Source: a candidate division WOR-3 bacterium
Lineage (GTDB): Bacteria > Hydrothermota > Hydrothermia > Hydrothermales > Hydrothermaceae
DNA: 36,814 nucleotides
Direction of reading: 5' to 3'
Assembly (NCBI GenBank): GCA_039803745.1
Contig: JBDRZD010000009.1
Coordinates: 1-36,814, forward strand
The notes under the pieces are model-generated. The model saw nothing but the letters and a program-made list of their open reading frames with translations. It did not search any database and was not told the DNA's origin. Position 1 is the first letter of the stretch, and the number at the start of each line of letters is the position of its first letter. Position numbers and translations under genes: made by a program. Positions 6,208 through 9,340 of this stretch are shown one piece after another.

Positions 6208-8460
6208 TTGCTCACCTCCCACTTAGAAAAATCTTTAATACCTTTAAGTCTCAAGATAAAGAATATTGAAAATTTATGGAATAAAGAAGAGGTAGAATTT
6301 TTAAAAAAATATGTTTTAAATAAATTTAAAGAAGATGTTAATTTTCTATTTGATAAGGAAAAACCAAAAACTTTTGTAATTGAAAATGGTGAGGAATTTA
6401 AAAGTTTAGAAGATGCTTTGAAATATTTTATAAAGAGTTCAGAAAAATTAAAGGAAGAGGAAAAGTTTATTTATCTTTTATTCCTTTTGAAATTAAAATT
6501 TTTGAAATACAAGAAAGAAGATTTTAAAAAATATGAAAATGAAATTTTATCAATTTTTAAAAAGGAATCATTAAAAAGCCTTCTTTCTTTGATTTTAAAA
6601 TCAGAACATTTTTATGAAAAATCAGTAGGAGATTTAAGTGAAAAACTGGCGCTGTCTGTTCACAAAAAGTTTTTAGATTTTTTAAAAATCTTTCACACCT
6701 TCTATGTAGAAATTTATTTTGAGAAAATATTAATGGAAGAAGATGAAGACATTTTAAAATATCTTACAGGATTTACAATTCCTGAAAAGTATATAAGTAA
6801 ATTTGAAAAGGAAATTCAAAATTTTAAAGAACTTAAAGAGGTAGAATCCATTTTAAAAAATTTAGAAATTCAGGAGAAGAAAATAATTGATGATTTAAAG
6901 GAAAGCCTTAATTTAGAAATTGAGGATTTTTCAAAAGAAATAAGAGATATTGTTTCAAAGAAAAAACTTAACTTATTTTTACCCTATATAAAAGAAAAAA
7001 GTGCTAAGTGGCTTAGGTCTTTCGGGATTATTCTAAAAGATTATAATTATATTCAGAAGAGAAAAATGGATTATGAAGGAAAATTTAAAATAGAAATTTC
7101 TAAAACTGTTTCAAATACCCTTCCTTCCCCTTATATTTTAATTAAAGAATGGGAAAAGGCAAAAGGTATTTTTTTAAAAGAAAAGTCTAAAGAAAAGGAA
7201 GTTTTACAAAGGATATTTTTTGAATATTATTCATACAAAAAAAAGGAAAAAAAGGATTTTGAATTTTTTGAAGATTTTATTAAAAAAGAATTTATAGAGT
7301 TTAAAATGGATTTTGAAGAATTTGAAAAGGAACTTTCCTATTTTTTTGAAGATAAATTTATTCCAAATCTTATCTTATGTCTTCTTTTAAAAAGTATAGT
7401 TATAATTCCTGAGGAAATTACAGATGAAAATGTTAAAGATTTATCATGCTGGATAGCCTTTAAAAAATTGCCAGATGGAGATTATTATATTTTTAAAGAT
7501 TTTGAAAATTTAAAAATCTCCGTGCCTTTTAAAACTCCTGAAGATTTTTATAACAAATTTAAAGAAATGGTTTCTTGCCTCGTTTACGACATAAGAGGCT
7601 CAACATTTATGTCCCTTAAATTAAAAGATTCAATTAAGGAATTCAATATAAAAAATGAATTTAATAAGGAAATGGTTTCAATAATTAAAAGATATGGTGG
7701 ATTTCCTTTGAAGGACTTGGGTGATGGTGGAATAATCCTATTTTCTGCCAACTCAAGGGAAATTTTTGAAGAAATTTTTGAAGAAGCCTTTTTGCCAAAA
7801 GGCAGGGCTTTAAGGATCCCTAAGTTATTTGAAAAGGAAGTTGAGATAGTTCCTTCATCTAACTCAAGTATAAATGCGATTTTATGTGCAAGAGATATGT
7901 ATAAAAAGTCTTTAGAATTTATAAGAGAAAATTATCCAAAATACAGAGACTTTTTCCCTGATGTTGTTGAAAATTTCCCTCCTTTGAAGTCGCTTTTCAG
8001 GGTGGGAATAGGTATTGCTTCTGGAAAACCAGGGAAACACATTTATTTGAATTATAACAGTTTTGGAGATATAGATGCTTCAGGTTGCATAATAAATATA
8101 GCGAATTTACTTGCACAGGGTAAAAATCCTTTAAACTCTCTAATTTATATAGACTCGGCTACATTCTTTTCATTTTTATTGAATTCCTCTGAATGGGATA
8201 TTGAATGTGAAACTGAGGGTATTTTTGAAAGAATAAAGTTTTATTTTGATAAAATAGATGAATTCTGGGTTTTTGATTTCCCTTTAAAAGAGATAAAAAT
8301 AAAAATTATCGGCACCGATCTTTTAGATATACCGGAGAAGGAGGAAGGACTTGTATTTCAGGTGCCTCCTGAAGTTGAATTTGGAAGGGATGAAGAACTA
8401 TTTTTTAAGGAACATCCTTTAAGGCTTATATATGAAGTAATTCCATATGAGACAAAGTGA
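6208..8460 (+). CDS. Large cytoplasmic protein with divergent class III nucleotidyl (adenylate-type) cyclase domain in its C-terminal half
   Basis: VYDIRGST (D461), KDLGDG (K502, D506), RVGIGIASG and DASGCIINIANLL (D623, N630). The N-terminal ~450 aa look helical and are unassigned. The TTG start 1 nt after the pilT stop is uncertain. Confidence 0.7.
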   Translation: MLTSHLEKSLIPLSLKIKNIENLWNKEEVEFLKKYVLNKFKEDVNFLFDKEKPKTFVIENGEEFKSLEDALKYFIKSSEKLKEEEKFIYLLFLLKLKFLKYKKEDFKKYENEILSIFKKESLKSLLSLILKSEHFYEKSVGDLSEKLALSVHKKFLDFLKIFHTFYVEIYFEKILMEEDEDILKYLTGFTIPEKYISKFEKEIQNFKELKEVESILKNLEIQEKKIIDDLKESLNLEIEDFSKEIRDIVSKKKLNLFLPYIKEKSAKWLRSFGIILKDYNYIQKRKMDYEGKFKIEISKTVSNTLPSPYILIKEWEKAKGIFLKEKSKEKEVLQRIFFEYYSYKKKEKKDFEFFEDFIKKEFIEFKMDFEEFEKELSYFFEDKFIPNLILCLLLKSIVIIPEEITDENVKDLSCWIAFKKLPDGDYYIFKDFENLKISVPFKTPEDFYNKFKEMVSCLVYDIRGSTFMSLKLKDSIKEFNIKNEFNKEMVSIIKRYGGFPLKDLGDGGIILFSANSREIFEEIFEEAFLPKGRALRIPKLFEKEVEIVPSSNSSINAILCARDMYKKSLEFIRENYPKYRDFFPDVVENFPPLKSLFRVGIGIASGKPGKHIYLNYNSFGDIDASGCIINIANLLAQGKNPLNSLIYIDSATFFSFLLNSSEWDIECETEGIFERIKFYFDKIDEFWVFDFPLKEIKIKIIGTDLLDIPEKEEGLVFQVPPEVEFGRDEELFFKEHPLRLIYEVIPYETK

Positions 8461-9340
8461 AATTTTTATTGAAAAACTCTCAAAAGTAATGGGGAATTAT
8501 GCTGGTGTGAGAAATCTTTTAAAAGAGATAATGGAGTATATATTAAAGGAGGAAAATCTTGATGCAGTTTTTATATACAGGAAGATAAAGGATAAAATTT
8601 GTTTGTGGGAAAAAAAGGGAGAAGTAGATTTACCTTTGGCTTTAAATAAAGAAAAGGAGTTTAATTTTGAAAATGATTCTTATTTTATAGAAACAATCTC
8701 ATCTTTCAAAAAAGAAGATGCAATCTTTGGTGCTTTTAAAAGGGAAATAAATAAGGATAGAATTAAAGAATACCTTCCTTTAATAGAAATAGTTTATCAA
8801 AGCATTACGCTTAATGAAAAGATGCAGGAACTCCTTATAAGGGATGATTTGACAGAACTTTCAAATTCAAGGTATTTTCATTTAATGCTTAAAAAATATA
8901 TTGCTAACAAAAAATATTATCCTATAACATGTATATTTCTTGATCTTGACAACTTTAAAGAGATAAATGAGGCTCATGGACATATTATTGGTGGAAAAAC
9001 ACTTAAAGAAGTTGGGAAAAGACTAAATTTGCTCTTTGAAAGTTTTCCAGGAGCAGTTCTTACAAGGTATGGTGGAGATGAGTTCACGATTTTGCTTCCC
9101 AATGTGGGTTTAGAGGAGGGTAAGGCAATTGCGATAATGCTGAAAGAAAATTTTGAAACAAAAGAATTTGAAGTTTCTAATTATAAGTTTTTTATAACTG
9201 CAAGTTTTGGGGTAGCAACTTTCCCAACTTCAACAGAAAATCCTGATAAACTTTTAGCACTCGCTGATAAAGCAATGTTTAAAGTAAAGGAAAAGGGTAA
9301 GAATAATGTAGGAGTTGCATATTCTGAGAGCGATTTTTAA
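8447..9340 (+). CDS. GGDEF-domain dinucleotide cyclase with small N-terminal (possibly GAF-like) domain; atypical base-specificity residue
   Basis: [36 protein letters not shown] and ADKAMF..K..GKN; overlaps the upstream gene by 14 nt. Confidence 0.92.

Follow-up and report, generated by a model that had tools for sequence, protein, structure and literature searches.

Which second messenger, if any, would be made by a GGDEF enzyme whose guanine-reading aspartate has been replaced by a glycine? The question is raised by a gene of 297 codons at positions 8447..9340 (+) of a 36,814-nucleotide (nt) stretch of DNA from a candidate division WOR-3 bacterium (GenBank assembly GCA_039803745.1, contig JBDRZD010000009.1, positions 1 to 36,814 of the forward strand), a stretch hereafter called "the window". 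The product of this open reading frame (ORF), 297 amino acids (aa) long, consists of an N-terminal sensor-like domain and a GGDEF domain, and a preliminary description of the window, made from its letters alone, had presented it as a Hypr-like enzyme devoid of the inhibitory I-site and possibly relaxed in its choice of base. The glycine in question, Gly183, is real, conserved and unusual; the functional role assigned to it below is a prediction, under which the protein may be an apparently intact cyclic-dinucleotide synthase with a possible signal other than plain cyclic di-GMP (c-di-GMP).

Glycine at the base-selectivity position

The GGDEF catalytic domain (residues 132-287; 8840..9307, +) was delimited by Pfam and by alignment, PF00990 matching over these residues with E=6e-36 and 124.1 bits (cut-off 23.8) and spanning profile positions 3-161 of 161. 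From residue 170, the translation reads [17 protein letters not shown], and the best solved sequence relative is the Hypr GGDEF domain of Geobacter GacA (6D9M, E=1e-26). When the two are aligned, Asn174 (codon 8966..8968, +; N335 in PleD), at the position contacting the sugar edge of the base, falls opposite GacA Asn339; Gly183 (codon GGA, 8993..8995, +; Asp344 in PleD), at the base-selectivity position, opposite Ser348; D211/E212 opposite Asp374/Glu375; and Ser141 (codon 8867..8869, +) opposite the cross-dimer residue Tyr304. A chain-to-paper offset of 130 accounts for all of the aligned GacA residues named in PMC6456294. Misalignment of the motif as the origin of the glycine was considered and rejected, there being no gap between N174 and G183 against 6D9M and the numbering matching four residues named in the paper.

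The Asp at the PleD D344 position, by which a canonical diguanylate cyclase is recognized, is thus absent from the protein, Gly183 standing in its place, and the catalytic set of the canonical cyclases is kept: the GGDEF motif itself (G209-F213; 9071..9085, +), the centre of which is Asp rather than Glu, and the equivalents of D327, K332, N335 and K442 (D166, K171, N174 and K281, respectively). The first of these belongs to the metal-binding DxD of D166-L167-D168 (8942..8950, +; the PleD D327 region), both aspartates of which are invariant in alignments A1 and A3, and across the orthologue alignments D166, D168, K171, N174, R207, GGDEF and K281 are all invariant or nearly so. The equivalent of PleD R446, mapped by eye from the motif, is a lysine (GKN). 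At the place of the RxxD inhibitory site, five residues upstream of the GGDEF motif and common though not universal in canonical cyclases, the alignment to 6D9M has no RxxD in the 297-aa protein: the R-E-V-D of the GacA I-site aligns around FPGA (residues 200-203; 9044..9055, +), where there is a 2-residue insertion and neither the R nor the D. On all of these residues (Gly183 for Asp, the retained N174, DLD and GGDEF, the missing RxxD) the preliminary description is borne out by the translation and the 6D9M alignment.

Gly183 is found in 11/11 sequences of the orthogroup, the query included, and the ten full-length orthologues recovered by a word-indexed protein search (65-99% identity) have G-G at 182-183; P0122, a more distant protein (52% identity in the domain), likewise has Gly. 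Within the order, the Gly form is present in 7/7 genomes examined (G000, the genomes of L006 and L007, G048, G063, G094 and G098, with G089, whose coordinates are the same as those of the genome of L007, counted together with the latter as one), and its codon is GGA or GGT, i.e., the changes are synonymous. Gly in all orthologues, independent assemblies and synonymous codons rule out a sequencing error, a pseudogene or recent decay as the source of the feature. The preliminary description had itself allowed that Gly183 might turn out to be unconserved or a sequencing error, and Gly is kept in every orthologue seen.

Affinity to the Hypr enzymes

Hypr enzymes are defined by Ser or Thr at the selectivity position (PMC9140294, PMC6456294). 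As Gly183 takes the place of this defining residue, strict membership of the family is not claimed for the 297-aa protein, and it is treated here as a Gly variant of the Hypr kind. Residues 125-297 of the query were searched with HMMER against 1.84 billion representative proteins, and each GGDEF domain of the 150 listed proteins was re-scored singly; the list is sorted on the score of the whole protein and runs down to about 115 bits, so that completeness holds above that value only. Among the 268 domains scored in these proteins, 35 reached at least 115 bits (26 Ser, 8 Gly, 1 Ala and 0 Asp), the top Asp-type domain being found at 93.7 bits. Of the 121 domains scored in the word-indexed search, 104 have Ser at the position, 4 have Ala and 3 have Asp, the remaining 10 being the Gly domains of the orthologues. 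Compared with the query domain, Ser-type domains (n=133) have a median identity of 41.5% (range 36-48%) and Asp-type ones (n=177) of 32.7% (range 25-40%). GAF-GGDEF proteins predominate among the Ser-type matches, and the sources assign some of these to Myxococcales or Bdellovibrionales. Since Hypr enzymes make up only 0.17% of GGDEF domains (PMC9140294), the Ser-type enrichment among the relatives is far beyond chance.

Two further features co-vary with the selectivity residue. Among natural enzymes, those with Ser/Thr are confined to GGDE[F/Y], and those with Asp are split between D and E at the motif centre, a restriction explained by the "Goldilocks" model through the distance needed between the selectivity residue and Mg2+ (PMC6456294, section 12). 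In the domains collected here, the motif centre is Asp in 133/133 Ser-type, 17/17 Gly-type and 5/5 Ala-type domains, and the 177 Asp-type domains divide into 78 with Asp, 97 with Glu and 2 with Asn, these rows being related and the independent Gly lineages among them numbering perhaps four to six, so that the motif counts overstate the independent evidence. As for the position of GacA Tyr304, Hypr enzymes that carry Tyr, Ser, Ala or Gln at this site chiefly make cGAMP (3'3'-cyclic GMP-AMP), and those having Arg make more c-di-GMP (PMC6456294). Arg occupies this position in 152/177 Asp-type domains versus 5/133 Ser-type ones, and Ser occupies it in 78/133 Ser-type and 16/17 Gly-type domains, Ser141 of the query included. 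The 297-aa protein has both of the Hypr traits, GGDE[F/Y] and a non-Arg residue at the Tyr304 position, and the designation "Hypr-like subtype without an I-site" given to it in advance holds up on account of its Ser-type nearest relatives, its GG-D-EF, its non-Arg cross-dimer residue, the conserved Gly and the lack of RxxD.

Set beside characterized enzymes, the protein shares with GacA (Geobacter; 6D9M/5VS9) and Bd0367 (Bdellovibrio) a selectivity residue other than Asp, the Asn339 equivalent, the Asp of GG-D-EF and, at the Tyr304 position, a residue other than Arg, but these two have Ser/Thr and an RxxD I-site, whereas the 297-aa protein has Gly, no RxxD and an N-terminal domain that is not a receiver. 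With the canonical cyclases (PleD, WspR and the GGDEF domain of Thermotoga maritima TM1788, 4URS) it has the fold and the catalytic machinery in common; unlike it, these have Asp as the selectivity residue, in most cases Arg as the cross-dimer residue, and a motif that is GGDEF in some and GGEEF in others, and the Asp-type domains listed are the weaker matches to the query domain by both bit score and median identity.

The phylogeny of the domains was approached twice. In a quick first tree, with 142 rows, the backbone stayed open; a careful maximum-likelihood tree was then based on 61 of those rows (22 each of Ser and Asp, 12 Gly and 5 Ala), with nine long-branch Asp rows dropped and the trait column removed. 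In the 61-domain tree, one branch splits all Asp rows from the non-Asp ones (support 82/91; present in 81% of the bootstrap trees), and the orthogroup forms a clade together with P0122 (100/100), which lies on the non-Asp side and adjoins an Ala/Ser group having Val at the Asn position (93/82). The orthogroup is thus close kin of the Hypr clade, though its grouping with the non-Asp domains has only moderate support, and a nested and a sister placement are alike compatible with the tree. On the 142- and 61-row trees, Gly at the selectivity position arose at least three or four times. The subgroup with Val at 174 comprises P0072, P0090, P0104 and P0112 plus 15/133 Ser-type rows, with Ser or Ala at the selectivity position. 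P0121 (1274 aa) has eight matched GGDEF stretches, and its three domains in the first tree have Asn, Glu and Asp at the selectivity position.

The Gly form is not confined to the orthogroup, Gly-type domains turning up again in several further lineages within the phylum. A phylum sample of 81 genomes yielded 35 domains (the 30 best loci, L006 and L007, and three paralogues), of which 12 are Gly, 9 Ser, 2 Ala and 12 Asp, the sample being ranked by likeness to the query, so that these counts are not frequencies. Five of the 12 Gly domains are of the orthogroup type and seven sit in other architectures of ~525-660 residues. GGDE[F/Y] is found in 23/23 of the non-Asp domains (12/12 of the Gly ones), and GGEEF in 10/12 of the Asp domains. 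The Asn335 equivalent is altered in relatives as well, giving (Asn position/selectivity position) Asp/Ala, Cys/Gly and Asp/Ser in the phylum sample and Asp/Gly, Val/Ser and Val/Ala in the sequence-search sets. The unusual base-contact pairs Asn/Gly, Asp/Gly, Cys/Gly, Asp/Ala and Asp/Ser, mostly from the same phylum and all with GGDE[F/Y], were encountered at loci L095, L096, L099, L102-L104, L107, L108 and L110 and in proteins P0143, P0161, P0182, P0196, P0208, P0243 and P0267.

The sensor-like domain, the gene block and the rest of the genome

An AlphaFold2 model of the 297-aa protein, built from a 60-row alignment, has a mean predicted local distance difference test (pLDDT) score of 90.4, and Foldseek matches it to GGDEF structures, the first being the GAF-GGDEF protein Dcsbis (4zmu, 317 aligned columns), with 6d9m also among them. 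In this model, the N-terminal domain (residues 1-128; 8447..8830, +) consists of two helices plus four strands, with a long helix as the linker running into the GGDEF domain. Residues 1-128 have no Pfam match at E<=10, and no significant profile similarity to the GAF domains of Ser-type Hypr homologues was obtained with hhalign (E=0.23). An Atlas structure search placed them at template modelling (TM) scores of 0.67-0.78 to clusters aligned at GAF_2/GAF_3, with feature matches of <0.9, i.e., below the bar for naming. The domain may be GAF-like in fold only, and that is to be taken as a lead only.

The gene belongs to a compact head-to-tail series of the order pdxJ, a 180-aa ORF, pilB, pilB, pilT, an ORF of 750 aa, the GGDEF gene, ligA and a nadD-like cytidylyltransferase-like gene, in which the gaps between genes, from pdxJ to the nadD-like gene, are from -14 to 43 nt. 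The 180-aa ORF (986-1528, +) has no Pfam match and is found between pdxJ and pilB in L006 and L007 too (49-63% identity). It is followed by two tandem PilB-like ATPases, ~50% identical to each other and each with an N-terminal MshEN domain, PF05157 (1572..3383, +, Pfam T2SSE 1e-137 and MshEN 5e-18; 3385..5109, +, T2SSE 8e-144 and MshEN 2e-21), and by a PilT-like retraction ATPase of 358 aa (5130..6206, +, T2SSE 2.5e-47). The MshEN motif, which we take to be the tandem 24-residue RLGxx(L/V/I)(L/V/I)xxG(L/V/I)(L/V/I)xxxxLxxxLxxQ that binds c-di-GMP, is complete twice in each PilB (at residues 6 and 35 of the first and 4 and 33 of the second), and the MshEN domains of both PilBs are predicted to be cyclic-dinucleotide receptors. 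The pilB-pilB-pilT-orf750-GGDEF(G) block was retained in 5/5 genomes checked, which come from two families, with ligA located elsewhere in the second family. Farther along the window lies a run of complex I (NADH:quinone oxidoreductase) subunit genes (13566-20068, -), ahead of which stands a 556-aa protein whose match to the M23 peptidase family is partial.

The 750-aa protein encoded directly upstream (6208..8460, +), whose gene overlaps the GGDEF gene by 14 nt, seems to have a class III cyclase fold in its C-terminal part (~residues 455-670). No Pfam match, PF00211 included, was returned for it, and its family profile matches CyaB (3R5G) weakly (E=0.0074). A model of residues 430-750 (pLDDT 82), however, finds class III adenylyl and guanylyl cyclases as its best Foldseek matches (E=3.7e-9 to 1wc1; TMt 0.78 to 3r5g, within a TMt range of 0.74-0.78), and D461, D506 and K502 are invariant in 37 sequences, so that the fold and the two metal aspartates (D461 and D506) by which a class III cyclase fold is recognized are both there. 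The protein thereby resembles the class III cyclases CyaC (1WC1) and CyaB (3R5G) in predicted fold, two metal Asp, Lys and the weak CyaB profile match, and differs from them in its long inserts, in an extra N-terminal region of 450 residues, for which Pfam gave no family match, and in the missing PF00211 match. Its family members are about 750-860 aa long and come mostly from WOR-3-type bacteria according to the naming sources, some being labelled by JGI as class 3 adenylate cyclase.

This arrangement invites a comparison with GacB (MXAN_2643), the GAF-Hypr GGDEF enzyme of Myxococcus xanthus that is activated by cyclic AMP (cAMP), M. xanthus type IV pilus motility being mildly affected by cGAMP (bioRxiv 10.1101/600031). 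The sensor-GGDEF layout, the similar size and the type IV pilus link (bioRxiv 10.1101/600031) are held in common, the closest non-orthologous matches of the 297-aa protein are GAF-GGDEF Ser-type proteins, and the cyclase-fold gene directly upstream would fit a cyclic-nucleotide input, which would parallel the activation of GacB by cAMP. The likeness has its limits: GacB is inhibited by c-di-GMP via R286 and has Ser at the selectivity position, whereas the protein described here has no I-site and has Gly, and its N-terminal domain is shorter and carries no detectable GAF sequence signature.

The genome (1.67 Mb, 93.5% complete) encodes 4 GGDEF, 1 EAL, 2 HD-GYP (HD_5) and 1 DAC domain proteins and 3 PF00211 cyclases, and the other three GGDEF genes have Asp at the selectivity position together with GGEEF. 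No PilZ domain was found in the genome at this completeness. The preliminary description had looked to GEMM-I riboswitches as a further sign, and here it gained nothing: the genome has 0 matches to GEMM-I and c-di-GMP-II riboswitches and the window has no Rfam match, but the GEMM-I search was also blank in every control (0/14 control genomes with a match), and with a genome 93.5% complete the absence of GEMM-I is therefore not demonstrated.

One of the two HD-GYP proteins, with a GAF domain, shows RPYR, the canonical form, where PmGH has R314/K317; the other, a REC-HD-GYP (G000 contig C3, locus L087 1459-2979, -), has RIYA in place of RPY(K/R). In HD-GYP phosphodiesterases, Rxx(K/R) reads guanine and Rxx(Q/N) marks the cGAMP-specific enzymes (bioRxiv 10.1101/600031). 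The orthologue of the REC-HD-GYP has Rxx(A/S) in 7/7 genomes of the order (RIYA, RIYS, RVYS and RSYA x4), whereas in a sample of 31 genomes of the class Rxx(R/K) is the form taken by 18/18 of the other HD-GYPs whose motif could be read, four more loci having given no match to the search pattern. Like PmxA and Bd2325, which are cGAMP-specific HD-GYPs, the REC-HD-GYP has lost the K/R of Rxx(K/R); unlike them, it has not the Gln or Asn of Rxx(Q/N) there but Ala or Ser, and the Pro of RPY is replaced as well. Within the phylum and class samples, the order with the Gly-type GGDEF is the only one in which full-length orthologues of the REC-HD-GYP were found.

Candidate products and their implications

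The reading we tentatively prefer, while putting its chance somewhat short of even, is that the 297-aa protein is a GGDEF enzyme of the Hypr kind with a relaxed choice of purine, giving cGAMP and/or cyclic di-AMP (c-di-AMP). Gly183 would offer no side chain to read the Watson-Crick face of the base, so ATP might be accepted beside GTP, and an active enzyme would hold the purine nucleoside triphosphates (NTPs) in a shifted, Hypr-like pose, the products being 3'3'-cGAMP and/or c-di-AMP, with or without c-di-GMP. Such an enzyme would escape c-di-GMP feedback or cross-inhibition. Its GAF-like N-terminal domain would be the point of input, where a cyclic mononucleotide supplied by the cyclase-fold protein next to it might be received, the dinucleotide made would act on the MshEN of the adjacent PilB ATPases and so tune type IV pilus activity, and the phosphodiesterase to go with it may be the REC-HD-GYP with Rxx(A/S) that is particular to the lineage.

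Quite a few observations weigh against this. Gly is unable to hydrogen-bond the base; since the Goldilocks model has substrate binding abolished once the selectivity residue lies too far from Mg2+, low activity is possible (PMC6456294), and D344 is called essential for GGDEF activity in a review (PMC7288161). The canonical GSU3350 remained a pure diguanylate cyclase after a D-to-S substitution (PMC6456294, section 12), which means that the selectivity residue alone is no guarantee of promiscuity. In an AU (approximately unbiased) test on the 61-row tree, a topology constrained to keep the orthogroup beside the Asp rows and apart from the remaining non-Asp ones is not rejected (p=0.535), the constrained tree being 0.73 log-likelihood units better, a result that goes against strict nesting. 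The MshEN motifs next door are those of canonical c-di-GMP binding, and c-di-AMP already has a synthase in this genome, the DAC protein. To these are to be added the N-terminal domain, in which no sequence similarity to GAF is detectable; the 750-aa protein, in which the transition-state Asn/Arg pair could not be identified from the alignment consensus as read by eye and for which there is no Pfam match; the riboswitch search, blank in the genome for both GEMM-I and c-di-GMP-II, with the GEMM-I control blank in 14/14 control genomes; and the co-distribution of the variant HD-GYP with the Gly GGDEF, which is one case, may reflect a single event and amounts to no statistical association.

Some of the same facts would sit well with an ordinary diguanylate cyclase, in which Asn174, stacking and the phosphate/metal contacts select GTP, c-di-GMP binds the MshEN-PilBs, and Gly183 is merely tolerated in a Hypr-derived scaffold. 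We hold this to be doubtful, if well worth keeping in mind: both neighbouring PilBs have their two complete c-di-GMP-type motifs, MshEN may be the main c-di-GMP receptor of a genome in which no PilZ was found, GSU3350 shows that pure diguanylate cyclase activity can persist without the Asp, and Hypr enzymes yield c-di-GMP too in vitro (PMC9140294), but three Asp/GGEEF cyclases are already present in the genome, the loss of the guanine-reading carboxylate is strictly conserved together with other Hypr features, and the lineage keeps an HD-GYP without the guanine-reading K/R. It is quite unlikely, in our estimation, that the GGDEF domain is weak or inactive in catalysis and serves instead to sense nucleotides, or to partner or scaffold the cyclase-fold protein translated along with it, even though Gly removes the only Watson-Crick contact, loss of substrate binding is what Goldilocks predicts for a contact too far from Mg2+, and the reviewed D344 is described as essential. 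The 14-nt overlap and the strict co-occurrence with the upstream 750-aa gene would fit a protein pair, and these two genes evolve faster (59-75% identity versus 71-95% for five of the other seven genes), a point weakened by the 180-aa ORF, which is lower still (49-63%); all of the catalytic residues (GGDEF, both metal Asp, K171, R207 and K281), on the other hand, are conserved, and the strict Asp of GG-D-EF across the Gly-type lineages is as expected of an enzyme under the Hypr geometric constraint. A product beyond the three known for bacterial GGDEF enzymes (built from other purines such as inosine or xanthosine, or from pyrimidines, or linear or oligomeric) would be made possible by an enlarged pocket, and we regard it as improbable to a still greater degree. 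Gly does enlarge the pocket, Hypr GGDEFs take other purine NTPs (PMC6456294, section 12), both base-contacting positions vary in relatives from the phylum (Asn/Gly, Asp/Ala, Cys/Gly, Asp/Ser, Asp/Gly, Val/Ser, Val/Ala), and the Ala/Ser of the HD-GYP differs from the Gln/Asn of cGAMP-specific enzymes (bioRxiv 10.1101/600031), yet pyrimidine NTPs are too short for the site under Goldilocks (PMC6456294), and ATP and GTP are the abundant cellular substrates.

A more far-reaching reading would be a separate order-wide circuit, alongside ordinary c-di-GMP signalling, composed of the Gly GGDEF as a writer lacking both a Watson-Crick base check and an I-site, the cyclase-fold protein as the input, the Rxx(A/S) REC-HD-GYP as the eraser and the MshEN-PilBs as the readers, with a messenger that is not c-di-GMP; this seems unlikely as things stand. 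If true, the messenger would be a GGDEF-made c-di-AMP or cGAMP, or a dinucleotide new to GGDEF enzymes, and the Gly/Ala/Ser residues, taken with the substitutions of the Asn335 equivalent, would be signs of a broader, unexplored GGDEF specificity code in this WOR-3-type phylum.

No description of a Gly-type enzyme was found in the available portions of the literature searched (PMC6456294, PMC9140294, PMC7288161, PMC10333796, PMC12943098, PMC13725321 and bioRxiv 10.1101/600031); the original census of Hallberg et al. 2016 (PNAS), outside that search, may list Gly variants. What the window and its relatives add is a conserved, apparently functional Gly form that carries the other Hypr hallmarks and recurs, beside Ala and other residue pairs, in a poorly studied phylum. 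If Gly-type enzymes are active, the genome rule by which cGAMP signalling is predicted would be too narrow, and the selectivity code of the commonest bacterial second-messenger synthase would have more than two states. The conserved gene neighbourhood, taken together with the variant HD-GYP encoded elsewhere in the genome, would furthermore constitute a complete candidate pathway, one that is testable with just a few recombinant proteins.

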